Positions 1-24,457 of a stretch of 64,000 bases of DNA are shown here, in pieces; positions within the stretch are counted from its first letter, which is position 1; each line of letters starts with the position of its first letter. The DNA comes from an uncultured Actinomycetes bacterium (GTDB lineage Bacteria > Actinomycetota > Thermoleophilia > UBA2241). The position numbers and the translations under genes were made by a program. Below the pieces are notes generated by a model. The model was not told the DNA's origin. It made no database searches and saw only the letters and a list, made by a program, of their open reading frames with translations. Location: NCBI GenBank assembly GCA_963767005.1, contig CAVYCN010000018.1, positions 80,823-144,822 on the forward strand, given 5' to 3'.

Positions 1-620
1 GACGAGTAGCAGCCCGGCGGGTAGACGAGGCCGGTCGACAGACCGTAAGCGCCGGCGGCCATGCTCGCCGCCAACAGGTCCTTCATGACGGCGAGCTCGC
101 GCTCGCCGGCGGGGCGCTCGTCGAAGCCCATCACCGCCACGCGCAGCGCGCCGTGACCGACCAGCGCGGCGACGTTGATGCCGCAGCCGCCGGCCTCGAC
201 GCCGCCGAGATACTCGGCGAACGTGCGCCAGGTGATCGGCGGCACGTCGAAGTAGAACTCCCACATCTTCACGAGGTCGGCGACGTGGGCGTCGGCGACC
301 GGGGCCGCCGACATGCCGCAGTTGCCCATGACGTGGGTCGTCACGCCCTGGTAGAGCGCCGACTCGGCGCCGGGGTCGGTGAGCACCGTGAAGTCGGAAT
401 GCGTGTGCGGGTCGACAAAGCCCGGCGTGACGTAGCGGCCGCCGGCGTCGATCACGCGGGGCGCGGGCCGGCCGGCGCGCGGCAGCGCGCCGGCCGGCCC
501 CACCCGCGCCACCAGGCCGCCCTCGAGCAGCACGTCGGCCGCGACCCAGGGGTTGCCGGCGCCGTCGACCAGCCGACAGCCCGTGATCAGTACGCTGTCG
601 GGGCCGGCCGGGACGCTCAT
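1..620 (-). CDS. N-acyl-D-amino-acid deacylase (D-aminoacylase family amidohydrolase), 3' end outside window
   Basis: Manual translation from ATG at 620 (GGAGGAG RBS): MSVPAGPDSVLITGCRLVDGAGNPW...PGFVDPHTHSD...QGVTTHVMGNCG...GAYGLSTGLVYPPG, typical of the family; not in the ORF track because it runs off the window. Confidence 0.88.
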   Translation of the reverse strand, partial: MSVPAGPDSVLITGCRLVDGAGNPWVAADVLLEGGLVARVGPAGALPRAGRPAPRVIDAGGRYVTPGFVDPHTHSDFTVLTDPGAESALYQGVTTHVMGNCGMSAAPVADAHVADLVKMWEFYFDVPPITWRTFAEYLGGVEAGGCGINVAALVGHGALRVAVMGFDERPAGERELAVMKDLLAASMAAGAYGLSTGLVYPPGCYS

Positions 621-659: not shown

Positions 660-1823
660 TCAGACGCCGTAGGCGGCGCGCACCAGTGCGAGATAGTCCT
701 CGTAGCCGGCGTCGCGCGCATTGTCGGGCGAGCATACATGCTCAGCCGACAGCCGCGCGACCTGCTCGGCCTCGGCGTCGGACAGCGGCTGCAGCTCGCG
801 CAGCGCCGGGATGCCGATCTCGCGCATGAGGGCCCGCACCCGCTCGACGCCCGCGGCCGCCGCCGCCGCGTCGTCGCGGCCGCCGACCTCGACGCCGAGC
901 GCCGCCGCGACACGCGCGTGCTTGACGGGATCGGCCGGCGCGTTGAACTCGAGCACGGCCGGCAGGAACACGGCGCAGGCCAGGCCGTGCGGCGTGTCGA
1001 ACACGCCGCCCAGGCTCTCGCCCAGGCAGTGCACCGCTCCGACATCGGCGTTGCCGAACGCCATGCCGGCCAGCAGGCTGCCGAGCAGCATGTCGCTGCG
1101 CGCCGCGCGGTCGGTGCCATCGGCGACGGCCCGCGGCAGGGCGCCGCCGACGAGGCCGATCGCGCGCAGTGCGAGGGCGTCGCTCACCGGGTTGGCGGCC
1201 TTGCAGGTGTAGGCCTCGACCGCGTGGATCAGCGCGTCCATGCCGGTCGAGGCGGTGAGCGCGAGCGGCAGCGACGCGGTGAGCTCGGGGTCGAGCACGG
1301 CGACGCGCGGCGCGATGCGCGGGTCGAGGAGCGTCATCTTGTAGTGATGCTCCTCGTCGGTGATCACGGCGACCCAGGTGACCTCGCTACCGGTACCAGC
1401 TGTGGTCGGCACGGCGAGCAGCGGGATGGGCGGCTTCTCGGGCACCTTGGGGTCTTCCCAATCCTTCACGCGGCCGCCGTTCGTCACCAGGGTGGCGGCC
1501 GCCTTGGCGACGTCGATCGCGCTGCCCCCGCCGAGGCCGACGATGGCCCCGGCGCCGGCCGCGAGGGCCGCGTCGGCCGCCGCCCGGCACTCGGCGTCGC
1601 GCGGGTTCGACGAGATCGCCGAGAACACGGTGCACTCGCGACCGGCTGCCTTCACGATGCCGGCGACGCGGTCGGCCAGGCCCGCCGCGACGAGGCCGGC
1701 GTCGGTGATCAGCAGGACGGCACCGTCCGACAGCGCCGCCGCTTCCTGGCCCACCTCGGCGACTCTGCCGGGTCCGAACACGATGCGGGTGGCAAGCTGG
1801 AAGCCGAAGGCGACATCGTCCAT
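660..1823 (-). CDS. Iron-containing alcohol dehydrogenase
   Basis: GLGGGSAIDVAK, VPTTAGTGSEVT, GMDALIHAVE and H...HG motifs; ATG at 1823 behind an AAAGGAG RBS. Confidence 0.93.
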   Translation of the reverse strand: MDDVAFGFQLATRIVFGPGRVAEVGQEAAALSDGAVLLITDAGLVAAGLADRVAGIVKAAGRECTVFSAISSNPRDAECRAAADAALAAGAGAIVGLGGGSAIDVAKAAATLVTNGGRVKDWEDPKVPEKPPIPLLAVPTTAGTGSEVTWVAVITDEEHHYKMTLLDPRIAPRVAVLDPELTASLPLALTASTGMDALIHAVEAYTCKAANPVSDALALRAIGLVGGALPRAVADGTDRAARSDMLLGSLLAGMAFGNADVGAVHCLGESLGGVFDTPHGLACAVFLPAVLEFNAPADPVKHARVAAALGVEVGGRDDAAAAAAGVERVRALMREIGIPALRELQPLSDAEAEQVARLSAEHVCSPDNARDAGYEDYLALVRAAYGV

Positions 1824-1922
1824 GACTGCTCCTTTGGGCGGACCCAACGTGGCACGGTAGCCGGATGGTATCGCCCGGGAAACGACGCTTGAACGGCCGG
1901 CCAGAAGGCCGTGCGCACGGCC

Positions 1923-1970
1923 GTGGCCGTCTGCACCCGGGGCCTCGCCGCCGGCGGTGCAACCGCACAC
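1923..1970. promoter_or_regulatory. Paired GTG-N8-CAC operator boxes upstream of the ADH gene (candidate PucR-family sites)
   Basis: GTGgccgtctgCAC (1923-1936) and GTGcaaccgcaCAC (1957-1970); a near-identical pair occurs at 8942-8988. Confidence 0.5.
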
Positions 1971-2046
1971 CGCAAGGCTACGCGCGCGGCGCCGATCGAC
2001 GGTCCGGCTCCGAACGCCCCGGGTGGCACGGGGTCGACCGGCGCCG

Positions 2047-3789
2047 TCAGCCTCGAGGCAGCTCGCGGGCGGCCAGCACGTCGGCGGCACGCAGGCCCAG
2101 GTAGACCTCGACCAGGCCACCGCTCGCCGCCAGGTCGACGCCGAGGAGCTGCTCGATCCGCGCCAGACGCTTGCGCAGGGTGTTGCGGTGCACGAAGAGC
2201 ACCTCGGCGGTCTCGCCGACCTGGCAGCCGTGCGCCAGATAGGCCTCGAGCGTGTCGAGCAGCCCGGTGCCGCGGCGCGCGTCGGTCGAGCGCAGGCGGT
2301 CGGCGACCGCCGCCCGCAGCTGGGTCAGCACCTCGGTCGAGAGCGCGTCGAGAGCCAGGTAGCGCGCCCCGAGCTCCTCGAACAGCGTGACCGTCGGCGC
2401 CGGCCGCGAGCGCGCCGTGGGCGGCGCCTGTCCCGGCCGCGCCCCGCCGGTCGACCGGTCGAGAGCCGCCGAAGCGCCGACGCCGTCGCCCGCGTCGCGG
2501 CCGTGGTACAGTGCGAGGCGCGCCTGGCCGGCGGCGCGCCGCACCTGCTCGACGCCGGTCGCCGCCGCCGACACGCCGACCGGCAGCGAGCCGAGGTCGG
2601 TGCGTACGCCCACCGTCTCGGCGACCTCGCCGAAGAACCGCGCCGCCGCCTCGCCGCCCGCACCGGCGACCGCCGCCGGGCAGAACGCGAACACCTCGGC
2701 GCCGAGGCGGTGCGACAGGAACGGCACGTCGCGCTCCTCGAGCAGGCCGTCGAGGGCCGCGTGCGCCGCGGCCGCCGGTGCGACGCCGACGCCGAGCACC
2801 GCCACCCGCCAGGGCTCGCCGGGCTCGATGCCCTGGTTGACGAGGCGCTCGGCGAGCTCACCCGGGCCGCCGCGCTCGTGCAGCAGCAGCTCGAGCAGGC
2901 CCGAGCGGGCGCGCCGCCGCGAGTCGGCCGTGACGTGGATCGTGCCGAGGCTCACCTCGAGCAGCCGCTGCGCGAACGACAGCGAGGCGTCGGCGAGCTC
3001 CGAGATCAGCCGGCCCGCAGGGTGGACGACGAGCAGCAGCCGCTCGAGGCGGCCACCGACCCGCACCTCGCGAAAGCCGACCCAGCGGTCGTCGAGCTCG
3101 AACACCGAGCGCGGCGCGCCCTGCCGGGTGAGGCGGTCGTACTCGCGCCAGGCACGCGCGACGAGCTCGCGCTCGTCGGCCGCCGGATTCGGCCCCGACG
3201 AGCTCGCCAGCACGCGCCCGGCGCGGTCGAACACGACCGCCTGGGCGCCGAGCAGCTCGCCCAGGCGCCCGACCAGGGCCTCGACGCTGTGCTCGTCGAG
3301 CAGCGCGTCGACGAGGCACTGCTGCATGGCGACGCTGCGCCGCAGGCGGTGCATGTCGCGCGAGGCGAGGGCGTTGAAGACGTAGCTCGTGATCAGCCGG
3401 AAGGGCGTCTCCTCGGGCACGCGCAGGATCGGCAGGCCCTCGTCGTCGCCGGCCCGCAGCATGGCGTCCGGGATCACGCGCACGTTGGGCTGGATGGCCA
3501 CGCCCACGCCCGCCATGCCGCTGCGCTTGAGCAGGCGCACGAGCCGCACGCCCGACTCGGGGTCGGCTTCGAGACGCGGTCCCGTAGTGAGCACGACGCT
3601 GCCCTGTACCATCCAGGGCGTCGGGTCGTCGAGGTCGCCGATGTACACGGCCTCGACGACCTTGGACAGGCCGGCGCGGCCGGCCACCACCTGCAGGTGC
3701 AGGTCGGGGGCCTTGACGAGCTCGGCGACCGTGAGGCCGCCCGGCGGCAGGCCGCCGTCGTCGACGGGGTTGAGGCGCTGCGGCTGCAC
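2047..3789 (-). CDS. PucR/CdaR family transcriptional regulator
   Basis: N-terminal PucR domain (DPTPW...VVLTTG) and C-terminal [23 protein letters not shown]. Confidence 0.93.
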
Positions 3790-3914
3790 GACGGTCAGCC
3801 TATACCGTCGCGCGGAGCGACGTCTCGCCGGCCGTGGCCGGCGCGGGCTTCTGGGGGGCAGAGAGCCCGCGCCGGCCGGACGCCGCGGCCGGCGTCAGCA
3901 GACCCGGCCGCGGC

Positions 3915-4850
3915 TCACCGCAAAAAGAGCGCGGCGACGGCCTTCTCGGTGTGCATGCGGTTCTCACCCTGGTCCCAGAAGGCGCAGTAGGGGCTCTCGA
4001 TGACCTCGTCGACCATGTCCTCGCCGCGGTAGCCCGGCAGGCAGTGCATGTAGATCACGTCAGGCTTGGCCATCTCGATCACGCGCATGTTGACCTGGTA
4101 GGGGGCGAAGTCCTTGAGGCGCTGCTCGCGGTTCTCGGTGGCCATCGAGTGCCAGGTGTTGCCGTAGATCACGTCGGCCTGGCCGGCGACCTCTTCGAGG
4201 TCGGGCGTATAGACGATCTTCGACCCCGAGAGGGCGGCCCACTTCTGGGCGATCGCGAGCTGCTCGGCGTTGGGCTGATAGCTCTCGTTGGGCTGGGCGG
4301 CGTAGAAGTCCATGCCGAGCATGGCGGAGCCCATCATGAGCGAGTGGCAGACGTTCCAGATGTCGCCCAGGTAGGCGACCTTGAGGCCCTTGTAGTGGCC
4401 CTTCTTCTCTTTGATCGTCATCAGGTCGCAGAGGCCTTGGCAGGGGTGGGTCTCGTTGGTCAGCGCGTTGATCACCGGGTTGAGCATGTAGCGGGCGAAC
4501 TCCTCGACGACCTCCTGGCCGAAGGTGCGGATGAAGAGGCCCTCGCAGTAGCGGTCGATGATGCGCGCCGTGTCTGAGATCGGCTCGCCGCGGCTGGTCT
4601 GCATCTGGTCGGGGCTCATGTAGAAGGTCTGGCCGCCGAGCTGGGCGATGCCCGCCTGAAAGCTCAGGCGGGTGCGCGTCGATGCCTTCTCGAAGATCAG
4701 GGCGACGGTCTTGCCGCGCAGCGGCTCGAAGAGCTCGCCGATCAGGCGCTTGCGCTTGAGCTCGATCGCCGTGTCGACGATGAAGCGCACCTCGTCGGGG
4801 GTGAAGTCGGCGAGCTTCAGGAAGTCTCTGCCCTGGAAGTGGTGCTGCAT
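3915..4850 (-). CDS. argF: Ornithine carbamoyltransferase-family transcarbamylase (atypical substrate loop)
   Basis: STRTR carbamoyl-phosphate motif, HPCQ and HCLP; NTWHSMA replaces the canonical DVWxSMG. Confidence 0.85.
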   Translation of the reverse strand: MQHHFQGRDFLKLADFTPDEVRFIVDTAIELKRKRLIGELFEPLRGKTVALIFEKASTRTRLSFQAGIAQLGGQTFYMSPDQMQTSRGEPISDTARIIDRYCEGLFIRTFGQEVVEEFARYMLNPVINALTNETHPCQGLCDLMTIKEKKGHYKGLKVAYLGDIWNVCHSLMMGSAMLGMDFYAAQPNESYQPNAEQLAIAQKWAALSGSKIVYTPDLEEVAGQADVIYGNTWHSMATENREQRLKDFAPYQVNMRVIEMAKPDVIYMHCLPGYRGEDMVDEVIESPYCAFWDQGENRMHTEKAVAALFLR

Positions 4851-4865
4851 GGTAGGGGGCTCCTC

Positions 4866-5510
4866 TCAGTCCGTCCAGCCGTAGGCTCTGATCGGCGAGC
4901 CGTCGCCGCCGGCCAGGCGCAGCGGCACGAAGGCGCAGTGTGCGGCCCGGCCGGCGGCCAGGCCCGCCAGCTCGGTCAGATTGGTCAGGTTCTCGACGAT
5001 CAGCACGTCGGCGCCCAGCAGGATCTCGTGGGCATGGGTCGTGTCCTGCAGCGAGCTGTCGACGTTGAAGGCGTCGGTGCCGACCAGGCCTACGCCGGCG
5101 GCCACGACGGCCCGGCAGGCCCCGGCGCCGAGCCAGGGGTGCTCGAACATGCCGGCGCCGCCCCAGTGACGATCCCAGCCGGTGGCCAGTAGCAGGGCGC
5201 CGCCGGCCGGCAGCCGCGCGAGCGCGGCGGCGAGCGCAGGCTCGCCGATCTCGTCGTCGGCGCCCGCCGTCACGCTCGCCACCACGGCCGGCAGCACGAA
5301 GCGCTCGAGCGGGTACTCGTCGATCGCGGAGCCGCCGCGCACGTAGTGGCCGGCGGCGTCGATGTGGGTGCCGCTGTGGCTGCCGAGCGCCAGGCGCGAG
5401 ACACGCCAGGGCTCGCCGACGGCGGCGTCGACGAGCTCGACGACCGGATCGCCGGGGTAGATCGGCATCCCGGTCGCGAGCTCGTGACTCAGATCGACGA
5501 AGTGCGTCAC
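4866..5510 (-). CDS. Cyclase family protein (kynurenine formamidase-like metal hydrolase)
   Basis: DLSH...PIYPGDP...HSGTHIDA...IVENL...DGSPIRA; the GTG start overlaps the permease stop (GTGA). Confidence 0.9.
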   Translation of the reverse strand: MTHFVDLSHELATGMPIYPGDPVVELVDAAVGEPWRVSRLALGSHSGTHIDAAGHYVRGGSAIDEYPLERFVLPAVVASVTAGADDEIGEPALAAALARLPAGGALLLATGWDRHWGGAGMFEHPWLGAGACRAVVAAGVGLVGTDAFNVDSSLQDTTHAHEILLGADVLIVENLTNLTELAGLAAGRAAHCAFVPLRLAGGDGSPIRAYGWTD

Positions 5511-6982
5511 GCGTTTGCTCCGGCGCGGTGCAGCTCCCTGTCGCTGGCCTCGATCGCGGCGTACTCGCTCGCCGGGTCGAAGTTGCGGGTCAGCAGGAAG
5601 TAGGCGGCGGCGGTGACGACCACGCCGACCATCCAGGCGATGTCGACGCTGTTCAGGTAGTGACCGGCGATCGGCCCCGTGAAGTAGCTCTTCAGACTGA
5701 CCAGGTTGAGCAGCACCATGAAGGGGACCTCGGCCGCGAAGCCGATCGCATAGGCCAGCATGCCGCGCGGCGACCAGACACCGTAGATGCCGTGCGGCTT
5801 GAAGATGTCGACGATCGAGTAATGGCCGCGACGCACGAAGAAGAAGTCGATCAGGTTGGTCGTGGTCCACGGCACGAGCAGGTAGAGCATGAGGGTCAGG
5901 GCGGTGTCGACGACGCCCACGGCGCTCGTCGAGATCGCCTTCGCGATCACGAACCAGATCACCGTCAGCACGAGGATCGTGACGATCCGCGCGCGCTTGG
6001 TGGGTGTCACCTTGCGGAACGAGTCGACGCCGGCCAGCGTGGTGAGCATGCCGCCGTAGGCGTTCATGCCCATCGTCGCGGCGAGCGCGCTGGCCGACAC
6101 GAACGCGGTGAGGCCGCCGAGGTGGCCGATCACATGGTTGCCGGCACTCTGCAGGCCGACGAGGCCGTCGGTCGCGCCCAGACGGACGGCGAGCCAGGCG
6201 CCCAGGGCGATCAGCCAGACCGATGGGATCGCCGCGCCGCTGAACACCCAGGCGATGGTCGAGCCCTTGGCGGTGCGGCGCGGCAGGTAGCGCGAGTAGT
6301 CGGACACATAGCCGGCGTAGGTCAGGTTGTAGGCGGCCGCCGCCGAGAGCTGCGCCATAAAGCCGGTCCAGTTGAAGCCGTAGGCCGTGTGGCTGGCGAC
6401 GTGGCCGGCGTGACCGGTGAGGATGCCGATCGAGATGATGCCGACGAGCGGCAGCGAGATGTAGAGCAGCCAGCGGAACATGCGGTGCAGCCAGTCGTAG
6501 CCGTAGATGGCCAGCAGCGCGGCGCCGGCCGTCGCAACGACGGCGATGACGTTCGCGTTCCAGCCGAAGGTGCCGTGCAGACCCTGAGCGAGCAGCACCT
6601 GGTCGGCCACGTTGAAGGCCATGTACGTGAAGAGCATGGCAAAGAGCGGCACGACCACGCCGCGAAAGCCGAACTGGGCGCGCGACTGGATCATCTGCGG
6701 CAGCCCGAGCACCGGCCCCTGGGTCGCGTGGAAGGCCATGAAGACCGTGCCGGCGACGATGCCGAGCAGGCCGGCCAGGATGGTCCAGTACAGCGACAGG
6801 CCGAAGGCCGGACCGATGAAGCCGATGGGGATCGTGAAGTACTGGAAGTTCCCCAGGAACCACAGCGGCCCCTGATGCCACACCTTGCCGTGTCGCTCGG
6901 AGTCGGGGATCCAGTCGATGGAGCGCACCTCGATCCCGCTGATGCCGCTCGGGGTGCGCGTCGGTGACTCAACCGTGGCCAT
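5507..6982 (-). CDS. NCS1 family purine/cytosine permease
   Basis: About 12 hydrophobic segments, GLPQMIQSRAQFG and SDYSRYLP motifs; ATG at 6982 with AGAGGAG RBS. Confidence 0.92.
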   Translation of the reverse strand: MATVESPTRTPSGISGIEVRSIDWIPDSERHGKVWHQGPLWFLGNFQYFTIPIGFIGPAFGLSLYWTILAGLLGIVAGTVFMAFHATQGPVLGLPQMIQSRAQFGFRGVVVPLFAMLFTYMAFNVADQVLLAQGLHGTFGWNANVIAVVATAGAALLAIYGYDWLHRMFRWLLYISLPLVGIISIGILTGHAGHVASHTAYGFNWTGFMAQLSAAAAYNLTYAGYVSDYSRYLPRRTAKGSTIAWVFSGAAIPSVWLIALGAWLAVRLGATDGLVGLQSAGNHVIGHLGGLTAFVSASALAATMGMNAYGGMLTTLAGVDSFRKVTPTKRARIVTILVLTVIWFVIAKAISTSAVGVVDTALTLMLYLLVPWTTTNLIDFFFVRRGHYSIVDIFKPHGIYGVWSPRGMLAYAIGFAAEVPFMVLLNLVSLKSYFTGPIAGHYLNSVDIAWMVGVVVTAAAYFLLTRNFDPASEYAAIEASDRELHRAGANA

Positions 6983-7105
6983 GGCAAGCTCTCCTCTCGC
7001 CTGACGTCGTTGGGGCTGGCCGGTGGGCTGCTGCTGATCGTGCACGATCCACGGCGACCGCCACAGGCGTCGCCGGACAGAGGGACAAAAGCAGGCGCGG
7101 ACGGC

Positions 7106-8005
7106 TCACGACCGTCCCGCCTGACGGGGCGCGCCGGCGCGGGCGGCGGCCGGCATGCCGGCCGCCGCCCGCGCCGGCGCGCTCACCGCGGCGTAGAGCT
7201 CGGGGCGCCGGTCGCGCAGCTGCGAGCCGTAGCCCGCGCGCGCCTGCCGGGTGTGTTCCAGGTCGACGGCGCCGGCGAGCAGAGCGTCCTCGCCGTCGTC
7301 GAGCGCGGCGACCTGGTGCCCGAAGCAATCGACGATGCGCGAGTGGCCCGAGAACGACGCCGGCCCGTCGGGTCCGGTGCGGTTGACCGCGACGTGCGGC
7401 ACGACGTTGTCGTAGGCGCGGGCCGCGACCGCGAGCTCCCAGTCGGCGACGTAGGGGTCCTCCCAGGCGCCGATCGTGACGAGCAGCTCGGCGCCGGCCA
7501 GCGCGTGCGTGCGGGCGACCTCGGGAAAGGCCGCGTCCCAGCAGATCATGAGACCGAGCTCGCCGAGCGATGTGGCGACGATCGGCAGCTCGTCGCCGTC
7601 GGCGAAGTGGCGGAGCTCGGTCTTGAGGCAGTGCGTCTTGCGGTACGAGACCACGGGGCGGCCGTTGCGCTCGAAGACGGCGGCCGCGTCGTAGATCAGG
7701 CCGGGCGCGCCGCCCGCCTCGGCGTAGCCCGCGATCAGCACCACGTCGAGCTCGGCGGCGAGGGCGGCAAGGGCCCGCAGGCTGGCGCCGTCGGGCCAGG
7801 GTTCGGCCAGCGCGGCGAACCGCTCGCCGGCCGAGTAGCCGGTGACGGCGAGCTCGGGCGCGACCAGCAGCGCGAGCTCGGGTTGCGCCGCCTTGAGCTC
7901 GCGCCCGAGCGCGGCCATACGGGCCACGTTGGCCGCAGGGTCGCCGGTCGTAGGCCGCAGCTGGATGCCGCCGGCGACGATCACGGACGCACGCGGGCGG
8001 GCCAT
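7106..8005 (-). CDS. Carbon-nitrogen hydrolase (nitrilase superfamily amidase)
   Basis: Catalytic triad contexts PELAVTGY, YRKTH and ICWD; C-terminal RDRRPELY. Confidence 0.92.
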   Translation of the reverse strand: MARPRASVIVAGGIQLRPTTGDPAANVARMAALGRELKAAQPELALLVAPELAVTGYSAGERFAALAEPWPDGASLRALAALAAELDVVLIAGYAEAGGAPGLIYDAAAVFERNGRPVVSYRKTHCLKTELRHFADGDELPIVATSLGELGLMICWDAAFPEVARTHALAGAELLVTIGAWEDPYVADWELAVAARAYDNVVPHVAVNRTGPDGPASFSGHSRIVDCFGHQVAALDDGEDALLAGAVDLEHTRQARAGYGSQLRDRRPELYAAVSAPARAAAGMPAAARAGAPRQAGRS

Positions 8006-8015
8006 CGGGCTCCTC

Positions 8016-8873
8016 TCAGACGTCCCGCAGGAGCGGGAACGTCATGCAGTGCGGTCCGCCGCCGCCCTTCAAGATCTCGCTGATCTCGGGGGCGATGACC
8101 TCGAGGCCGAGGGCGCGCAGCTTCGCGTTGACGTCGCGATTGCCGGCGAAGGTCAGCACGCGGCCGTCGCCGAGCGCCTGGATGTTGCAGTGGTGGGCGA
8201 GCACGCCGGCGCTGCTCACCTCGATCAGCTCGAAGCGGCGCTTGGCCAGGGCGCGCAGGAAGAACTCGGGCATCTGCTCGACGGCGCACACAGCGACGCC
8301 CGGCGCCACGATGTTGAAGGCCATGTCGAGGTGCAGGTTGCGCGAGGGAAGCTGCACGCCGCGCACGGTGTAGCCGAGCGGCTCGAGGATCTCCTGGGCG
8401 TTGCGCAGCCCCTCCCAGTCGGTGCGCGCCACCACGCCGTGGGCCACCGTGGCCTCGTCTATGAGCCAGAAATCGCCGCCCTCCAAGGAGCCGCGGCAGA
8501 CCTTGCCGATGATGGGCACGCCGAGCTCTCGCAGCCTGGCCTCGTAGAGCAGCTCCTCGCCCTGGCGCACCGGCTCGCGGAAGCTGCCGATCAGCGCACC
8601 CTCGGCCAGACAGGCGCCGAAGTCGCGCGCGTAGACCATGTAGGGCAGCTCGGGATCGGGCTCAATGAGCTCGACCGCGACGCCGGCCTCGCGGTAGGCC
8701 GCCACGAGCTCTGAGTGCTCGCGGGAAAAGGCCGCAAGGTCGGGCTGCTCGCCGCGGGCCAGCACGCCGCGGGTGATCTCGTTGATGGGCTGGAAGCTGA
8801 AGTGGTCGGGGGGGCACAGCAGGACCTTGCGGAGCCTGCCCGTCGCGTTCGACACAAACAGCTGCTCGGTCAT
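8016..8873 (-). CDS. Dimethylarginine dimethylaminohydrolase / amidinotransferase (pentein) family protein
   Basis: Motifs YARD, LEGGD, HLD and GGGGPHCMT (catalytic Cys); ATG at 8873 with GAGGAG RBS. Confidence 0.9.
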   Translation of the reverse strand: MTEQLFVSNATGRLRKVLLCPPDHFSFQPINEITRGVLARGEQPDLAAFSREHSELVAAYREAGVAVELIEPDPELPYMVYARDFGACLAEGALIGSFREPVRQGEELLYEARLRELGVPIIGKVCRGSLEGGDFWLIDEATVAHGVVARTDWEGLRNAQEILEPLGYTVRGVQLPSRNLHLDMAFNIVAPGVAVCAVEQMPEFFLRALAKRRFELIEVSSAGVLAHHCNIQALGDGRVLTFAGNRDVNAKLRALGLEVIAPEISEILKGGGGPHCMTFPLLRDV

Positions 8874-15488: not shown

Positions 15489-16892
15489 CTAGCGAATGAC
15501 CGGACGGCGACCGGCGAGCCCCGCCCGGAATCGCTCGACGGCCGGCAGGTGCAGGTCGAGCAGGTCGGCGATGTGCGCCTTGGCCTCGAGCGGGCTCGGG
15601 TCGTCGTAGTAGCTCGCCTCGGTCTCGAAGATGCGTCCGAGGCGCAGCTCACCGCGCAGCTCGTGCATGGCGGCGTTGTCGGACAGGTCGCGCGGCGCGA
15701 CCCCGAGCCGGTCGGCCACGTAGCGTTTGGCCTGCGTGATCCTCATGCCCTTCGCCATCTGCATCCGCGCCACCAGATCTCCGGCGGCGCGCAGTCCGTT
15801 CATGCCGGAGGCGCACGAGTGGGCGACGTCCATACCGAACGAGTCGCCCGTGCCCACCTACAAGCCGTCCAGGCGGAGCACGTCGACGCAGGCGCGCGAC
15901 ACCCGCGAGACGGCGTCGACCGGCGCGAAGGCGGTCATCGGCACGCCGCCCACGCCCATGCCGACGTTCATGTGCACGGGTATCTCGGCGGCGGCCATGC
16001 AGGGCTTCACGAAGGTGAGGGCGCGAGCCACGTTCCAGGGCGTCGACCTGCTCGTGTTGGTGTTCACCGCCGGTCCGAACACCGTCGCGCCGGCCTGCTG
16101 CACCACCGCGAGCTGACCCGCTGGCTTGAGCCCCGCCAGGCGCGTGCCGCGATACTCGAGCCGGCCGTGGGTGCCGAGCACGATCTCGGCCGCCATGCCG
16201 ACCATGATGCCCAGGTCGGGGTGCCGCTCCCGCAAGATCTCGACGGTGCGCAGGGTGGCCAGCAGGTCGGCGTCGCCGGCGGCGCCGGCGGTGTCGAAGT
16301 TCACACCGTCGGCGCCGGCGTCCCACATGGCCTCGGCCACGTAGACCATGTCGGCCACGGCAAGCTCGACCGCCTCTTCCTGGGCGGCGCGCGCCTCGTC
16401 GATGCGCACCTCGGGCAGGAGCTGCGCCCAGTTGCCGCAGGGTCCGTCGGGTTCCGAGTACCGGCCCAGGTCGGGCTGGGCGCCGTAGTGCACCGGCACC
16501 GTCAGCCGCTCCTGGGCCTCCTTCATGTACTGCTGCTCGAAGGGGACAACGGGCTTGACCGCCTTGTAGGAGTAGTCGATGTGGAACAGCTCGACGCTGT
16601 CGTGGGCGAGCACCTGCTCGTAGGCGTACAGGGCGTCGACCCTGCTGCCGAGCTGCGGCGTGCCGGTGCCATCCTTTGAGAGCACGACCTCGTCGCCCAC
16701 ATCGACCGCCGTGAAGCGCGCCTGCGACGCGAAGATGTCGAGCAGATGGTCGAGCTCACTGTCGTCGAGCGACGCCAGCTTGCCGCGGGTGGCGGCGGCC
16801 TGCGTGCCCGCGTCGAGCTCGACGCGGATGGCGCTCCGGGTCGCCTCGACGAGCGACCCGTCGCCCATCCGCATCGGGACCTGCCGTTCCAT
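15489..16892 (-). CDS. mtbB: Pyrrolysine-containing dimethylamine:corrinoid methyltransferase (MtbB family), paralog 1
   Basis: ORFs 15858..16901 and 15489..15857 are contiguous in one frame, joined by TAG at 15858-15860 (codon 345; LRLDGL*VGTGD). MtbB motifs [39 protein letters not shown] at 16892 after GGAGGTG; terminal stop is TAG. Confidence 0.92.
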
Positions 16893-16980
16893 CAACGTCA
16901 CCTCCGCGGCGCCGTCGCCCCCCTGGCGTCGGTCCCGGGGATGCTATCGCAGTCGCAGGCAAAGCGGCAACGCGCCTTCA

Positions 16981-17037
16981 GGCAAGAAGCGAGGCGGGGG
17001 CGGCGCCTTCGGCGCCGCCCCCGCCTCGCTTCTTGCC
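16981..17037. terminator. 27-bp perfect inverted repeat downstream of mtbB paralog 2
   Basis: ggcaagaagcgaggcgggggcggcgcc-ttc-ggcgccgcccccgcctcgcttcttgcc. Confidence 0.75.
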
Positions 17038-17068
17038 GTCGCCGGTCTGACCGCCGCGCCGCGGCCTT

Positions 17069-18454
17069 TTACAACCCGACGCGCTGCTTGAAGCGCTCGA
17101 CGCTGTTGATCGTGATGTCGAGCGCCTTGGCGATGTTGAACTTGGCCTCGATCATGCCGGCGTCGCCGGGACGCACCGCGGAGGTGTGAGGCAGGCACCC
17201 CAGCCCCTTCTCGATGCGGATCTGCTCCATGGCGATCGGGTCGGACAGGTCGCGTACGCCGCAGCCGAGCTTGTCGGCGACGTAGGCCTTGGCTTCACTC
17301 AGGCGCATCCTTCGGGTCATCTGCATGCGTGCCACGAGATCTCCCGCGGTCCGCATTCCGCCCATGCCCGAAGCCTGCGAATGGGCAGACTCCATGCCCA
17401 TGGCATCGCCCGTGCCCACCTAGTAGCCGTCGATCTTGAGGATCTCGACGAAGGCCTTGGAGGCACGCGACGTGGCATCGGCCGGCGGATAGACGCAGGT
17501 CGGCACGCCGCCCACACCCATGCCCACGTTGACGTGCACCGGGATCTCGGCGATCTCGGCGGCCGGCTTGATGAAGGTCATCGCCCGGGCGATGTTCCAG
17601 GCGGTCGACTTGCCTGTGTTGATGTTGACGGCGGGGCCGTAGATCGAGGCGCCCGCGGCCTGCACCATGCGCACCTGGTCCTTGGGCCACATGCCGGCCA
17701 GACGCTCGCCGTCGAACTCGAGCTGGCCGTGCATGCCGAGCACGAACTCGCTCGCCATGCCGATCTCGATGCCGAGCCACGGGTATCTGTCGCGTAGCAT
17801 GCGGCAAGCGGTGAGGCCGGCGAGAAAGTCGGCGTCGCCGGCCGCGCCGGTCGTGTCCATGTCGATGCCGTCGGCGCCGGCTTCGATCATGTGGTCGGCG
17901 ACGAAGTTGATGTCGTTGACCAGCATGTCGCAGGCCTCGAGCTGCGCGGCGCGGGCCTCGTCGACCTTCATGAGCGGCAGCAGCTCGGACCAGTTGTCGA
18001 TCGGCCCGTCGGGCTTCGAGTAGCGGCCGAGGTCGGGCATCGCCCCGTACTGCACCGGGTTCGTGCAGAGCATCTGGGCGATCTTCATCGACTGGCCCTC
18101 GTGGGCCACGTTGGTCTTGACCGCCTTGTACGAGTAGTCGATCTGCCAGAGCTCGATCATGTCGATGCCGACGACCTGCTCGTAGGTCTGCAGGTCCTGC
18201 ACCCGGTTACCGATGTGCTTGGTGCCGGTGCCGTCGTTGCTCATGACGACCTCGTCGCCGATGTCGACGGCGGTGAAGCGGGCCGACGAGGCATAGATGT
18301 CGAGCAGGTGGTCGAGCTCGTCCTGATTGAGCGGGTCGACCTTGGCCCGTTTGGCGGCCTGTTGCGTGCCGTCCTCGAGGTCGGCCTTGATCTCGGAGCG
18401 CGTCATATCGACGAGCGCGCCGTCTCCCATGCGCGTTGCGATCTTGGGTTCCAA
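17069..18454 (-). CDS. mtbB: Pyrrolysine-containing dimethylamine:corrinoid methyltransferase (MtbB family), paralog 2
   Basis: In-frame TAG at 17420-17422 (codon 345 from TTG 18454; LKIDGY*VGTGD) joins ORFs 17420..18469 and 17069..17419; GGAGG RBS 8 nt upstream of the TTG; terminal TAA. Confidence 0.93.
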
Positions 18455-18750
18455 GCGCATCACCTCCACGTGCGCACGTTCGCGGGGACCGGCCGCCGGT
18501 AGCGACCGGGACCGGATCGGACTCGGATGTGCCCCGGGTCTGGGTCACGAAGGGCCACACCGGGAGCCGTCGGCCCATGGTATATCGGCCCTCCCACCGT
18601 CCGCCACCCGGGGCACCCAGGGGCCCGAGCGCGGCACGCCGAGACCGGGACGCTCGCTCTCACCCCGAGTCGCGCCGCATCACCCCCCCTCGCGGCGGTA
18701 CGACCAGGGGCGCGGCATCACCCCACGGCGCGCCGGCGTCTCGCGCATGC

Positions 18751-19152
18751 TCAAAGCCCCTCGAGATCGAACCGTTCGTCGATGGCGAGGCAGTGGCCGA
18801 CCCCCAGCCGCCGTGCGACCAGGAAGGTCGCGCAGTCCACGAGCGACGGCTGCCGTTCGGCGCCTGCCGTGTTCAGCTCACCGATCAGTCGCTCGACGGC
18901 GAGCTCGTGCTCGACGGGTCGGACCCACTCGACATCGAACGCCGGGAGAAGATCGCGCAGGAACGTCGTCACCGCTGCCACGCCCAGACGGCGTCTGAGC
19001 ACATCGACGGTCTCGAGCGCGACGTAGTTGGTGACGATGAGCCGGTCGGCCGCATCGAGCTCGTAGGCGAACATGTGCCGCGTCAGCTCGTGCTCAGGAT
19101 GGCGACCGTCCAGGAGCGCGACGAGCGCCGTCGTGTCGATCAGAGTCGCCAC
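18751..19152 (-). CDS. vapC: PIN-domain toxin (VapC family)
   Basis: LIDTTALVAL, TNYVALET, SLVDCATF and IDERF, the conserved acidic PIN residues. Confidence 0.88.
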   Translation of the reverse strand: MATLIDTTALVALLDGRHPEHELTRHMFAYELDAADRLIVTNYVALETVDVLRRRLGVAAVTTFLRDLLPAFDVEWVRPVEHELAVERLIGELNTAGAERQPSLVDCATFLVARRLGVGHCLAIDERFDLEGL

Positions 19153-19153
19153 G

Positions 19154-19537
19154 TCACTCGTCGTCGCGCGGGTTGTCGAGCCAGTACCGAGGCGCTCTCC
19201 GCTCGCCGGGATCACTGCCGCGCTGCGCATTGTTCCCAGGCGCCGGACCGGCCGCCGTGTCGAACCCGGCACCGGCCGCCATGTCGAACCCTGCACCGGC
19301 CGCCATGTCGAACGCTGGGTCGGGTGCGGGGCCGGGCGTCGTGCCCGGACCAGGCTCGACGTCATCGACGACGGCCAGCGCGCGCCGCCGGACGAGACGG
19401 ACGAGCGACTCAGACCGCGCTACCTGGATGTCGAGAGCGTGCCGCACGTAGCCCGCCAGGGAGAGACCATCGAGCCTCGCCCGTTCCCGGACGGCGTCGA
19501 ACTGCTCTTCATAGAGCTGCACGGTCACGCGGATCAA
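19154..19537 (-). CDS. Ribbon-helix-helix antitoxin (VapB/CopG-like) with internal repeat expansion
   Basis: MIRVTVQLYEEQFDAVRERARLDGLSLAGYVRHALD matches the RHH pattern; directly upstream of vapC; 24-bp repeats encode FDMAAGAG. Confidence 0.75.
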   Translation of the reverse strand: MIRVTVQLYEEQFDAVRERARLDGLSLAGYVRHALDIQVARSESLVRLVRRRALAVVDDVEPGPGTTPGPAPDPAFDMAAGAGFDMAAGAGFDTAAGPAPGNNAQRGSDPGERRAPRYWLDNPRDDE

Positions 19538-19627
19538 AGGCTGACCTCGCAGGTCGCGGAGAGACCGCGGTGCCGTGCCGATGCGCGAGGCCAGCCCGTC
19601 GCGCACGGGAGGTACGGGAGTGTGGGT

Positions 19628-19680
19628 GTGTGTGGTGCCATCATGCCATCACTTTCTGCTGGCATGATGGCACCACACAC
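19628..19680. promoter_or_regulatory. 21-bp perfect inverted repeat upstream of vapBC (candidate autoregulatory operator)
   Basis: gtgtgtggtgccatcatgcca-N11-tggcatgatggcaccacacac. Confidence 0.6.
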
Positions 19681-19784
19681 CCTCGGGGTCCCGCGGCTCG
19701 AGTGGGCCACGGGCTCACATTTGACGCGGGAACGAGGTCACGGAGCGCAGCTGGAGCGGTTGACGAAGGAGTGGGTGCGGTCAC

Positions 19785-19922
19785 GGCGACGCGATCCTCG
19801 GGCGACGCGATCCTCGGGCGGCGCGGTTCTCGGGCGGCGCGGTCCTCGGGCGGCGCGGTCGTCAGGCGGCGCGGTCCTCGGGCGGCGCGGTCGTCAGGCG
19901 GCGCGGTCGTCAGGCGGCGCGG
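19785..19922. repeat. 16-bp tandem repeat, about 8.6 copies (VNTR)
   Basis: Unit ggcggcgcggtc(c/g)tc(g/a) repeated head-to-tail. Confidence 0.9.
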
Positions 19923-20941
19923 CGGGCGGTCGCGTCGGCGGCGTCGGGCGCTATGCGGATCTCGTTGACGAGTGGGCGACCGGCCTCGAAGTCGGCGGCG
20001 TTCGCGAGCGTCGTCGTCGCGATCTGCTCGAGCGCCTCGCTCGTGAAGTAACCCTGGTGCGCCGTGATCACCACGTTGGGGAACGTGAGCAGGCGACTGA
20101 AGACGTCGTCCTGGATGATCTGACCCGACAGGTCGCGCGAGAAGAGCTCCGTCTCCTCTTCGTAGACGTCGAGACCGAGCGCGCCGATGTGGCCCGACTT
20201 CAGCCCCGCGATCACGGCGCGCGAGTCGACGAGGCCGCCGCGGCTCGTGTTGACGAGCATGACGCCGCGCTTCATCAGCGCGATGGCGTCGCGGTCGATC
20301 AGGTGGGTGGTCTCCGGCAGCAGCGGGCAGTGCAGCGTGACGATGTCAGAGGCGGCGAGCAGCTCGGCCAGCGACACGTAGGTGACGCCCATCTCGCGGG
20401 CGCGCTCGCTCGGGAACGGGTCGTAGCCCAGCAGGACGCAGCCGAAGCCGCGCAGGATGCCGGCCGTCGTGGCACCGATGATGCCCGTGCCGACGATGCC
20501 GACGGTGCGACCGTTGAGGTCGAAGCCCAGCAGGCCGTCGAGCGAGAAGTTGCCGTCGCGGACGCGCTGGTAGGCGCGATGGATCTTGCGGTTCAGCGCG
20601 AGGATGAGCGTGACGGTGTGCTCCGCTACGGCGTGCGGCGAGTAGGCCGGCACGCGCACGACGCGCAGGCCCAGGGCGGACGCGGCCGCGAGGTCGACGT
20701 TGTTGAAGCCCGCCGAACGCAGGGCGACGAGCGTCGTTCCGCCCGCGGCGAGCGTCGCGAGCGTCTCGCCGCCGAGCTCGTCGTTGACGAAGACGGACAC
20801 GCCGGGGAACCCGGCCGCAAGCGGAGCCGTGTCGGCGGTGAGCCGCGCCTCGAAGAACACGAGCTCATGAGCGAAGCTCGCGTTGGCCGCGGTCAGGAAC
20901 TCACGGTCGTACCGCCTGGCGGAGAAGACTGCGATGCGCGT
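19910..20941 (-). CDS. ldhA: D-lactate dehydrogenase / D-isomer 2-hydroxyacid dehydrogenase
   Basis: [47 protein letters not shown] and TAHQG; the expected start position is ACG (20941), so the start is uncertain. Confidence 0.85.
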
Positions 20942-21066
20942 GGCGTCCTCGCTGGAGTCGGGCTTGCGTCCGACCCCACGGTTCCCCGCCAGGAGCAGGA
21001 CAAACGCAATCGTCGCGGCGAGGCGCGATCGTCGCGACGAGGCGCGCCGCGATAGGGCGATGAGGT

Positions 21067-21108
21067 CGGCGGTGGGCGGGCGCCCATACGGGCGCCCGCC
21101 CACCGCCG
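21067..21108. terminator. 19-bp perfect hairpin immediately after mtbB paralog 3
   Basis: cggcggtgggcgggcgccc-atac-gggcgcccgcccaccgccg; no clear U-tract. Confidence 0.65.
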
Positions 21109-21111
21109 CGA

Positions 21112-22518
21112 TCAGCGTCCGACGGGGTGCTTGCGGCCGGCCATCTCGCGGAAGCGCTCCACGCAGTTGACCGGCACGTCGAGCACGGCCGCGATGTTGA
21201 ACTTGGCCTCGATCCCCATGGGGTCGCCGACGTCGGTGATCTCGCCCGACTCGAGGATGCCGCCGAGGCCGTGCTCCTTGCGCACGTCGAGCATGACCGT
21301 CGGGTCGGAGAGGTCGATCGTCGAGACGCCCAGCCGGTCGGCCACGTACCGCTTGGCCTCGACGAGCCGCATCCCTCGGGTGATCTGCATCCGGGCCACC
21401 AGATCTCCAGCAGTCCGGATCCCGCCCATCCCCGAGGCGACGCCGTGGCTCACAGCCTGGCCGTACACGTCGCCCGCGCCCACCTACAAGCCATCCAGGC
21501 GCAGGATGTCGACCGCGGCGCGCGAGGCCCGGCAGGTGGCGTCGCCGGCCGGGGTGACGTGCATCGGCACGCCGCCCACCCCCATGCCGCCGTTCAGGTG
21601 CACCGGCACGGTCGCCTCGTCGCAGCACGGCTTGGCGATGGTCAGCGTGCGCGCCACGTTCCAGGCGATCGACCTGCCGGTGTTCACGTTGATCGCCGGG
21701 CCGAAGATGGTGACGCCGGCCTTGGCGGCCACCTTCATCTGCTCGCGCGGCCACAGGCCGGCGAGGCGCACGCCGTCGTACTCGAGCTCGCCGTGCATGC
21801 CGAGCACGAACTCGCCGGCCATGCCGATCTGGATGCCCACCGTCGGGTGCGCGGCGCGGATGCGCTCGACCGCCTTGAGCGTGGCGAGGAAGTCGGCGTC
21901 GCCGGCCGCGCCGGCCGTGTCGAGGTCGATGAACTCGGCGCCGGCTTCGATCAGCTCGTCGGCCACGAAGCAGATGTCGTCGACCGCGAGCTCGACCGCC
22001 TGTTCCTGGGCCGCGCGAGCTTCGTCGATGCGACCGAGCGGCAGAAGCTGCGACCAGTTCGGCACCGGACCGTCGGGCACGGTGTAGAGGCCGAGGTCGG
22101 GCATGGCGCCGTAGCCGAGCGGCGCCGTGGTCACGAACTGCGCCTGGCGCATCATGACCTGCTCGAAGGCCGTGACCCCCTTCGCCGGCTTGTAGGAGTA
22201 GTCGTGGTGGTAGAGCTCGAGCGAGTCGGCGCAGAGGTACTGCTCGTAGTACTGCAGGTCGTTGATGCGCGTGCCGAGGTCCTGGCTGCCGCAGCCGTCG
22301 AAGGACAGCACGACCTCGTCGCCGATGTCGACGCCGGTGAACCGGCTGTTCGAGCAGAAGATGTCGGCGAGGTGGGCGAGCTCGTCGGCGCCCAGCTCGG
22401 GACTCTTGCTGCGCTTGGCGCCGGCCTGCGTGCCGGCCTCGAGGTCGGCGCGGATCTGCGACGGCGTCATCTCGACGAGCGCGCCGTCGCCCATGCGCGT
22501 GCGGATCGTGGGTTCCAT
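21112..22518 (-). CDS. mtbB: Pyrrolysine-containing dimethylamine:corrinoid methyltransferase (MtbB family), paralog 3
   Basis: In-frame TAG at 21484-21486 (codon 345; LRLDGL*VGAGD) joins ORFs 21484..22518 and 21112..21483; GAGGTG RBS; terminal TGA. Confidence 0.93.
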
Positions 22519-22948: not shown

Positions 22949-24457
22949 ATGCCTGAAATCCAAATGGCGACCGAGAAAGCCAAACTCACCAAGACCCTAC
23001 GTCGGTGGGACATGGCGCTGTTCACCGCCTGCGCCATCATCGGGTTCGACTCGCTCGCCTACACCACCTCGGTCGGGCTGGGCCAGGCCATCACCTGGCT
23101 GATCATCACCTTCTTCATCTTCCTCATCCCGTTCGGCCTGCTCACCGCCGAGGTCAGCACCGCCTTCCCGGCCGAGGGTGGCGTCTACGCCTGGTGCCGC
23201 ATGGCGTTCGGCAAGCTCTTCGGCGAGCTCGCCACCATGATGTACTGGCTGTCGAACGCGATCTGGCTGGGCGGCACGCTGACCGCCGTCACGATCGGTG
23301 TCATCGATGTCTTCTTCACGCCCAAACACCTGCTCGGCACCGCCGCGTCGATCGTCGTCGGCCTCGTTTTCACCTGGGTGACCATCTTCTTGTCGGTGAT
23401 CAACCTCAAGTACGGCAAGTGGACGGGCAACCTGGGCACCTTCTTCAAGGCCATCATCATGGTGGTGATGGCGGTACTCGGCATCCTCTTCCTGGTTCGC
23501 CACGGCATCCCCAAGGGGATCGCCCCGGCGAGCTCGTACACGCCCAGCATCACAGGCTTCCTCGCCGTCATCGGCGTCATCGTCTTCCTGTGGGTCGGCT
23601 TCGAGCTCCAGGGCTCGGCCAGCGAGGAGATGGTCAATCCGCAGAAGGACGTGCCGCGCTCGATTCTCAGCTCCGGCGCCATCACGACCGCCATGTACGT
23701 CGTTGTCATGCTCTGCATGCTCCTCGTGCTGAAGGAGAAGGACCTCACCGCAGCGTCCGGCATCCCCGCCGCGGTGCAGGCCGTCATGGCCGACGCGGTG
23801 GGTAGCGGCACGGCCAAGGCGATCGGCTATTTCCTCGGCGTCATCTTCATCCTGCAGTACCTGAGCTCGGCGTCGGTGTGGACCCTGGGTTCGGCCCGCG
23901 TGCAGGCAGTGGCCTCGCTCGACGGCTCGGCCCCGCGCATGCTCGGCAAGTTCTCCAAGCAGGGCACCCCGCTCGCGATGTGCGTCCTCATGGGCATCGT
24001 CGGCTCGATCATGTGCTTCATCGTGTTCCTCGTGACGAGCGGCAGCCTGCACAGCTTCATCGTCGTGATGATCGCCCTCGACACCTCGCTCACGGTGGTC
24101 GTCTACGTCTTCCTGATCCCGGCGATGGTGCGTCTGCGCACCACGCACGCGCACGTCCATCGGCCGTTCATCGTGCCGGGCGGCGCGGTCGGCCTGTGGG
24201 CCTGCGCGGCCATCACTTGGATCCTCTCCGTCATCACCTGCATCACCCTGCTGTGGCCGGGCCTCATCAACAACATGCTCGGCCAGAGCTTCTCGATCAC
24301 GGACTACGAGGGCATGTCCCGGCTGCGGTTCGAGCTCATGGACCTCGGCACGTTCGTCGTCCTCATGATCATTGGCGTGGGCTTCTGGGCCTACGGTCGT
24401 ACACAGGGCACGGTCTCCGAAGACGCCGTCATCGAGGGCGTCGTCGAGGAGTCCTGA
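22949..24457 (+). CDS. APC family amino acid/polyamine permease
   Basis: About 12 TM segments, FPAEGGVYAW and GFE...SEEMVNPQKDVPR motifs; GGAGG RBS. Confidence 0.92.
   Translation: MPEIQMATEKAKLTKTLRRWDMALFTACAIIGFDSLAYTTSVGLGQAITWLIITFFIFLIPFGLLTAEVSTAFPAEGGVYAWCRMAFGKLFGELATMMYWLSNAIWLGGTLTAVTIGVIDVFFTPKHLLGTAASIVVGLVFTWVTIFLSVINLKYGKWTGNLGTFFKAIIMVVMAVLGILFLVRHGIPKGIAPASSYTPSITGFLAVIGVIVFLWVGFELQGSASEEMVNPQKDVPRSILSSGAITTAMYVVVMLCMLLVLKEKDLTAASGIPAAVQAVMADAVGSGTAKAIGYFLGVIFILQYLSSASVWTLGSARVQAVASLDGSAPRMLGKFSKQGTPLAMCVLMGIVGSIMCFIVFLVTSGSLHSFIVVMIALDTSLTVVVYVFLIPAMVRLRTTHAHVHRPFIVPGGAVGLWACAAITWILSVITCITLLWPGLINNMLGQSFSITDYEGMSRLRFELMDLGTFVVLMIIGVGFWAYGRTQGTVSEDAVIEGVVEES

Follow-up and report, generated by a model that had tools for sequence, protein, structure and literature searches.

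The dimethylamine methyltransferase MtbB of the Methanosarcinaceae (PF09505, TIGR02368) carries pyrrolysine (Pyl), encoded by an in-frame UAG, at residue 356. According to a 2025 paper, no mechanism for targeted Pyl insertion is known in any of the organisms concerned (PMC12626013), and the cited passages of bioRxiv 2024.09.30.615893, PMC12626013 and PMC2933860 treat a targeted mechanism as not validated. The sections cited of PMC3639795 give a predicted mtbB structure, no common mttB structure and no structure common to the enzyme families. Pyl-containing MtbB is an already known trait of the lineage considered here: the parts of Ellenbogen et al. cited in this work (PMC10805028) report that metagenome-assembled genomes (MAGs) of the Actinobacteriota express Pyl-mttB and mtbB, count the genus Bog-752 among the most active methylotrophs and, in the supplement, class Bog-752 in the family UBA2241 and list several mtbB per MAG, three of them on a single contig. 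Here we analyse a stretch of 64,000 nucleotides (the window) from an uncultured bacterium of the Thermoleophilia (UBA2241; assembly GCA_963767005.1, contig CAVYCN010000018.1, positions 80,823 to 144,822), which holds three mtbB genes, each with an in-frame TAG and, downstream of it, an mRNA hairpin that is conserved at silent sites.

A single internal in-frame TAG is present in each of the three genes, at 15858, 17420 (17420-17422) and 21484 (21484-21486) on the minus strand. The contexts in paralogs 1, 2 and 3 are DGL-TAG-VGTGD, DGY-TAG-VGTGD and DGL-TAG-VGAGD, the codon before the TAG being TAC (Tyr) in paralog 2 and TTG in paralog 3, and the frames continue for 122, 116 and 123 codons, respectively (Table 1). 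The first-pass annotation, made from the letters alone, had proposed these three TAGs, the motif DG(L/Y)-TAG-VG(T/A)GD, 116-123 codons beyond it and products of 461-468 amino acids, and all of this is borne out. Its placing of the TAG at codon 345 throughout holds for paralogs 1 and 3, but in paralog 2 only if the TTG start at 18454, 8 nt after GGAGG, is used; an ATG two codons earlier makes the TAG codon 347. It had missed that the final stop of paralog 1 (15489-15491) is also a TAG.

On read-through the three proteins span positions 4-461/462 of the 463 in PF09505 (542-559 bits), exceed the TIGR02368 equivalog cut-off (403-427 against 369.1 bits) and are about 58% identical to one another. 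When 142 full-length mtbB matches were collapsed to 126 by exact-sequence identity, the TAG was found in the identical column of all 126 homologs, never replaced by TGA or TAA, and the codons after it are under purifying selection (dN/dS, the ratio of nonsynonymous to synonymous substitution rates, 0.10-0.34 in 12 ortholog pairs); the internal TAGs are therefore not due to chance or error. Residue 344 of paralog 3 aligns with residue 355, the last of the TAG-truncated MtbB of Methanohalophilus halophilus, and the alignment with Rfam RF02509 begins at each of the three TAGs, ungapped in the alignment shown. Together these alignments put the window TAGs at the Pyl356 site of the methanogens, as had been claimed. 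In an AlphaFold model of paralog 3 (predicted local distance difference test 94, predicted template-modelling score 0.93) the chain forms a triosephosphate isomerase (TIM) barrel with residue 345 in its last strand (343-346); sequence search of a PDB copy returned no MtbB structure, and Foldseek with the predicted model returned generic TIM barrels only. It is scarcely credible that these are pseudogenes or products of misassembly, or that they make only 344-residue N-terminal parts working without Pyl. Databases do hold the truncated form (the best 120 matches listed for paralog 3 span at most 74% of its length, as gene calls stopping at TAG would), and frameshifted mtbB copies occur in some related assemblies. 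The stop, however, is TAG in 126/126 although TGA ends 63% of the genes, selection persists behind it, truncation would remove the last strand of the modelled barrel, and the pyl system is complete. It is close to certain, judged from sequence, that the three genes encode intact MtbB-family methyltransferases in which the internal TAG is decoded as Pyl.

The genome (3.44 Mb in 19 contigs, about 71% GC, scored 100% complete with 4.87% contamination) contains tRNA-Pyl(CUA) (pylT) at 242986-243058 of contig C3, and pylB, pylC, pylD, pylSn and pylSc on the same contig, all above NCBIfam cut-offs, with a corrinoid protein gene among them. The Pyl-expanded code that had been proposed is thus supported by the position of the TAG in the Pyl column and by a genome search that found pylT, pylSn/pylSc and pylBCD complete. 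Sixteen Pyl proteins are predicted: eight MtbB, each gene with one TAG and three of them being the window triplet; seven MttB, out of 41 matches including fragments; and one MtmB, out of four matches. Within the pyl locus itself, the pylC stop is a TAG in frame with pylD six codons on, so that read-through would fuse both (contig C3:243102-245240, minus strand; L001:13103-15241); the pylSc and pylSn stops are also TAG, which could be chance given 32% TAG usage. Beside pylSn lies the gene of a 292-residue radical SAM protein (L001:9186-10064, plus strand), homologs of which are found in 11/30 short pylSc loci of relatives, as are corrinoid proteins in 15/30.

TAG is also an ordinary stop in this genome. 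Among 3037 called genes, TGA is used in 63%, TAG in 32% and TAA in 4%, and since TAG makes up 22-32% of stops in four relatives without a PylSc match (small samples of 53-86 genes each), TAG stops are not depleted. As 36 of the 126 mtbB genes, including paralog 1, also end in TAG, one mRNA then holds a sense and a stop UAG alike, and since TAG still ends 32% of the genes the two must be told apart. Genetic code 34, in which every TAG is Pyl, was rejected on the same ground, grpE in the window being one of the genes that end in TAG. The only read-through genes recognised are the 16 methyltransferases; neither a coding-potential scan behind all stops nor a hairpin scan of the genome gave further Pyl proteins, and high coding scores behind other TAGs were traced to adjacent genes with their own starts. 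UAG pseudouridylation by TruD was discarded, no TruD having been found.

Around the Pyl codon of mtbB, selection at silent sites keeps a hairpin. The glycine 26 codons after the TAG is GGA in 126/126 genes (4% elsewhere), the aspartate that follows it is GAT in 92/126 (11% elsewhere), and leucine directly before the TAG (99 genes) is encoded by TTG in 93 and by TTA in 6 (7% elsewhere). The tree requires 0 changes of the +26 glycine codon, compared with 14-47 for the remaining 14 invariant glycines. The A of this GGA opens an AGAY loop (+78..81), which is carried by a stem of 14 pairs in which third positions face each other. Over 119 distinct mtbB rows the stem cells are paired in 89.1%, compared with 81.2% after shuffling and 30-42% for slid partners, and double changes fill 100 cells compared with 31 in shuffles, a number that 0/500 shuffles reach. 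In the window, the paralog 1 hairpin folds with z -3.5 (0/200 shuffles as stable) and that of paralog 2 has, at +75:+84, a compensatory G-C pair in place of the C-G or U-G of most copies. At the terminal TAGs of mtbB both the hairpin and the preceding TTG/TTA were absent (0/36 each).

It is very improbable that the conservation at silent sites merely results from gene conversion among paralogs, from shared ancestry or from codon-pair bias, as a by-product without RNA function. Many of the sequences are close relatives, and 3 of the 14 stem pairs never vary, conserved amino acids fixing part of the stem. On the other hand, GGA before Asp is rare (just 80 of 4986 Gly-Asp pairs in the genome), the stem third positions covary between C-G, U-G and G-C with about six changes per side on the tree, and Bacillota mtbB keep GCC GGA GAT CTG even where GC content at third positions (GC3) falls to 0.26. 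The G-U pairs, and a switch from TTG/GCC to TTA/GCT in the mttB of Chloroflexota and Bacillota, likewise speak against a by-product. A DNA operator was rejected because the G-U pairs are fixed, and these pairs suggest that the element acts as sense-strand RNA. An internal ribosome-binding site (GGAG) was rejected as the main explanation, the next valine being GTG in only 97/126 and the mttB loop lacking GGAG. The mtbB hairpin is very probably a real RNA element under selection.

Table 1. Features of the 64,000-nucleotide window, with positions counted from its first letter.
Feature	Position	Strand	Remarks
mtbB paralog 1	15489..16892	-	467 aa on read-through; ATG start; PF09505 and TIGR02368
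TTG (Leu344) and in-frame TAG (15858-15860; inferred Pyl345), paralog 1	15858..15863	-	RF02509 starts here, 73.3 bits
Conserved mRNA hairpin, paralog 1	15763..15794	-	+64..+95 after TAG; loop AGAU at 15777-15780
mtbB paralog 2	17069..18454	-	461 aa from TTG start; stop TAA; RF02509 54.8 bits
Hairpin, paralog 2	17325..17356	-	loop AGAU; fold z -3.4
mtbB paralog 3	21112..22518	-	468 aa; ATG start; stop TGA; RF02509 50.6 bits
Hairpin, paralog 3	21389..21420	-	loop AGAU; fold z -2.0; 11/200 shuffles as stable
Divergent APC-family amino acid/amine permease	22949..24457	+	PF13520; conserved flank of the triplet

Comparable elements are found in the two other enzyme families. In Pyl-mttB (39 genes) the codons GCG TTG GCA GGN GCC AAC yield a stem of 6 pairs that closes an AGGN loop at +72 (GUUGGC-AGGN-GCCAAC); GCA is used in 38/39 and TTG in 35/39, against backgrounds below 4%, whereas in the same columns of 72 non-Pyl mttB genes GCA codes for 0/32 alanines and TTG for 0/42 leucines. 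The mttB stem shows 16 double changes against 5.6 in shuffles (59 distinct rows). In Pyl-mtmB an AGGN loop stands at +114, its A being supplied by GCA, GTA, ATA or CTA in 5/6 mtmB genes from the bacterial family studied here; the codon before the TAG is TTG/TTA in 15/15, and 7 double changes compare with 2.9 (14 distinct rows).

Independent sequence sets agree for mtbB. These were recounted with a looser pattern, since a strict one had skipped 4 Bacillota and 24 metagenome rows, which gave 29 and 112 rows; the metagenome mtbB (at least 122 stretches, of which the 112 rows were counted) were collected by a pattern that fixes neither the +26 nor the -1 codon. In Bacillota mtbB, GGA is found in 26/29 (background 23%) and TTG/TTA at -1 in 28/29. 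Among the metagenome matches listed, DG(L/F)-TAG genes have GGA in 95/98 and TTG at -1 in 89 (backgrounds 23-25% across the independent sets), compared with GGA in 7/14 of the methanogen-type DG(I/V)-TAG genes, whose stems average 9.1 pairs against 12.1 in DG(L/F). One DGI record is placed with the Methanosarcinaceae. The remaining DG(I/V) genes are presumably from archaea and those of the DG(L/F) type from bacteria; a few DG(L/F) sequences resemble those of Thermoleophilia. In Chloroflexota mttB the hairpin is present in 2/2, with a compensatory pair.

From known Pyl biology, PylSn/PylSc would charge tRNA-Pyl, which then competes with release factor 1 at UAG. A UUG or UUA in the P site, together with the distal hairpin, might tip the UAG toward Pyl insertion at the methyltransferase sites, and as its position is well outside the ribosome the hairpin probably works through a bound protein. 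Taken jointly, decoding as Pyl by the organism's own pyl system with the AGAY hairpin and UUG biasing the UAG to read-through is a likely account; for the single step that the hairpin acts on UAG decoding, we put the chances at about even. The wider proposal concerns bacteria in which UAG is both a common stop and a Pyl codon: sense UAGs would be marked site by site by a P-site UUG/UUA together with a distal hairpin whose tetraloop is A-G-purine-N. It is tentative, and its chances fall somewhat short of even. It would entail that hairpins evolved in parallel in mtbB, mttB and mtmB and are read by some factor, for which the free PylSn subunit is one candidate.

Several observations count against these readings. 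Taken whole, the 108-nt regions are no more stable than their shuffles (z -0.3 to -1.6), and the sequences are related, so that the shuffle counts overstate significance. The UUG rule for codon -1 does not hold in the Tyr clade, which includes paralog 2, or in 13/39 Pyl-mttB. Stems of at least 4 pairs are present in only 3/6 Thermoleophilia and 6/9 Bacillota mtmB, and Bacillota Pyl-mttB have the hairpin in only 16/33 and leucine at -1 in 0/33. Loop offsets differ by enzyme family (+78 in mtbB, +72 in mttB, +114 in mtmB), all of them far from the ribosome. A hairpin rule marks 16/16 Pyl genes of the genome, but in-sample, the rule having been built from the same genes, and it also marks 10/925 other TAG-ended frames, along with 13/1835 TGA-ended ones and 3/2091 random coding windows. 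No corrinoid protein gene was found beside the mtbB triplet or elsewhere in the 64-kb window. In the literature, the cited part of PMC2933860 states that the pyrrolysine insertion sequence (PYLIS) is not essential in methanogens, and that of PMC12626013 models amber ambiguity without any sequence signal.

Plain amber suppression, set by the supply of Pyl-tRNA and perhaps active only with methylamines, is a serious competitor, to which we give a similar, somewhat less than even, chance. The hairpin would then do another job, such as mRNA stabilisation, a block to Rho once ribosomes have dissociated at the UAG, or binding of a regulator. Its distance of 72-114 nt from the UAG and its patchiness in Bacillota mttB fit this explanation, as do a supply-and-demand model for M. 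acetivorans, in the section cited of PMC12626013, and a bacterium that turns its Pyl system off without methylamines, cited in the relevant passage of bioRxiv 2024.09.30.615893. What plain suppression explains less well is that the element tracks the Pyl codon in three enzyme families unrelated to one another, that both non-Pyl mttB and the terminal TAGs of mtbB lack it, and that the codon directly 5' of the UAG is constrained too. Among the matches listed, the constraint is moreover strong in DG(L/F) mtbB and weak in the methanogen type, which fits discrimination between sense and stop UAGs.

The annotation was right about a high-GC actinobacterial host. Most of the related loci belong to records labelled Thermoleophilia or Actinomycetota, with UBA2241 and bog_752 among the names. 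mtbB was found in 23/24 other genomes of the family searched, against 1/16 from other families, and PylSc in 54/58 other genomes of the family, 7/47 in one other family and 0/195 in the rest of the class. Its remark that the trait is rarely described in Actinomycetota was overstated, given this distribution and the report in PMC10805028.

The eight paralogs fall in separate clades, each with orthologs from other genomes, in a FastTree phylogeny of 126 proteins (Shimodaira-Hasegawa-like support only); two of them, of canonical type, cluster away from the rest, and each of the eight is about 47-64% identical to the three window proteins. Loops 74-84, 319-325, 351-361 and 420-432 are fixed in sequence within clades and differ between them, and core strand residues are common to all MtbB clades. 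The eight are likely old, separately conserved lineages that differ in substrate or regulation, and the substrate diversification suggested for the triplet may be correct, as it fits the clade-specific loops. That they are instead redundant dimethylamine isozymes with like substrates, kept for dosage or regulation, appears the less probable alternative, if one to be reckoned with: the common core residues would agree with it, as would the three mtbB isozyme genes of M. barkeri mentioned in the cited part of PMC2933860, while the separate supported clades with their orthologs, the identities of about 47-64% and the clade-fixed loop differences argue against it.

As judged from the family, Pyl in the barrel would activate dimethylamine or a related N-methylamine. 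The methyl group would pass to one of 14 MtxC-type corrinoid proteins encoded elsewhere, kept active by a RACo-type activase, and then to tetrahydrofolate (THF) through an AcsE-like methyltransferase, to be oxidised through Fhs and a formate dehydrogenase-like enzyme. The genome has 16 matches to the corrinoid-protein family TIGR02370, four of them above cut-off, one RACo-type activase (PF14574), an AcsE-like methyl-THF:corrinoid methyltransferase above the NF005719 cut-off, and Fhs (PF01268). It also has tRNA-Sec and a molybdopterin enzyme gene with an in-frame TGA, which we infer to be a selenocysteine (Sec) formate dehydrogenase. The proposed link to the Wood-Ljungdahl pathway stands in part: the methyl-THF methyltransferase, Fhs and the activase were found, but AcsB/CdhC gave 0 matches in the genome, a provisional result as the assembly may have gaps; it is present in 38/60 other genomes of the family. 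With no acetyl-CoA synthase found, the strain would not be a classical acetogen. A six-frame scan with a short motif missed EF-Tu, which indicates that the assembly has gaps and is less complete than scored, so that absences are provisional.

With some 30 non-Pyl MttB-family and three non-Pyl MtmB-like genes, the repertoire for methyl scavenging is very large; a single activase and a single methyl-THF methyltransferase serve it, with no acetyl-CoA synthase found. An MttB-family match at C10:37067-38566 (plus strand) has one internal TGA, which may mark the true end of the frame near the C-terminus, encode selenocysteine or be an error. A homolog of the formaldehyde-activating enzyme Fae lies near an mttB/corrinoid cluster (L176:6600-7100; contig C4:351597-352100, minus strand). 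Near-identical duplicate matches on different contigs (C6:241889 and C15:5192; C6:26890 and C9:20392) are consistent with the 4.87% contamination or with strain mixing.

Of the 20 regions fetched for mtbB matches, 8 contain the triplet with its gene order kept, seven from genomes of the same genus and one from another, the triplet being mostly flanked by the permease on one side and an aldolase on the other. The amino acid-polyamine-organocation (APC) family permease adjoins the triplet in 7/8 of these loci and would be the substrate importer. Between paralogs 2 and 3, at 18751-19606 (minus strand), lie a PIN-domain gene (PF01850, 24 bits) and a small upstream open reading frame, likely a toxin-antitoxin pair inserted between the paralogs; the PIN gene is found at the equivalent place in 3/8 loci. 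A D-2-hydroxyacid dehydrogenase gene (19910-21103, minus strand) directly after paralog 3 is kept in 5/8. Further off, a cluster at 660-8873 (minus strand) encodes a dimethylargininase-like amidinotransferase, a nitrilase-family amidase, an NCS1 transporter, a cyclase, an ornithine carbamoyltransferase, a PucR regulator and a Fe-alcohol dehydrogenase. True dimethylargininase releases dimethylamine; the protein encoded here scores far below the family cut-off. A promoter scan found none.

Pyrrolysine is family-wide here, and standard gene calling truncates at residue 344 the mtbB paralogs, of which there are up to about ten. Members of this family may for that reason have been missed as methylamine consumers, a role that methanogens share. 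The background of 71% GC exposes selection at silent sites and pinpoints specific silent mutations, and a working signal, if the proposal is true, would be useful for site-specific amber suppression in bacteria.

With MtbB of the Methanosarcinaceae the window proteins share full-length homology, the Pyl column and the motif after it. Identity to the M. halophilus protein is 44% over the N-terminal 348 columns, and an 11-residue gap near residue 70-85 accounts for Pyl345 here against Pyl356 there. Unlike in the methanogens, eight paralogs occur in this one genome, no corrinoid gene adjoins the locus, TAG makes up 32% of stops, and the silent-site constraint on the hairpin is strong rather than weak (GGA 7/14 in the methanogen type, among the matches listed). 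The peatland Actinobacteriota of genus Bog-752 (UBA2241) belong to the same class and likely to the same family, and a bog_752 record bears the same triplet at 82-91% identity; the cited parts of PMC10805028 contain no account of pyl machinery, paralog clades, TAG stop usage or an mRNA signal. The delta-1 symbiont of Olavius algarvensis has, in the sections cited of PMC1976440, the same split PylSn/PylSc and six MtbB and two MttB with Pyl, eight Pyl proteins compared with 16 here; a bacterial PYLIS was sought there and no common structure found.

The signal is partly catalogued in Rfam. The window TAGs score above the gathering threshold of 36 of PYLIS_2 (RF02509; Table 1), partly through coding homology. 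The second stem of PYLIS_2 is the inner 7 bp of the mtbB hairpin, and it is this distal stem-loop that is backed by covariation here; in the region of the proximal stem single sequences fold variously, and the consensus of ungapped mtbB rows shows the distal stem only. The structure of PYLIS_3 (RF02510) is without the AGGN hairpin of mttB, and PYLIS_1 (RF01982) ends before the +114 hairpin of mtmB. None of the Rfam PYLIS models includes the shared A-G-purine loop, the -1 codon or the bacterial-type bias, and a literature search, with subscription journals outside it, gave no publication on a tetraloop common to the Pyl families. What this analysis adds is a cross-family silent-site signal around the Pyl codon, a candidate signal by its sequence pattern.

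A motif scan for a dedicated SELB-type factor gave no second SelB paralog, the same scan having missed EF-Tu; of the two proteins that it returned we take one to be SelB-like and the other IF2-like. The resemblance to the bacterial selenocysteine insertion sequence (SECIS) is that of an in-gene hairpin located 3' of the recoded stop and maintained at silent sites. Bacterial SECIS stands directly after the UGA and is read by SelB, according to the part of PMC1976440 cited, whereas the Pyl hairpin loops are 72-114 nt away. If sense UAGs are indeed marked site by site, these hairpins would fill, for pyrrolysine, the vacant place that SECIS occupies for selenocysteine, and methanogens could largely do without them.

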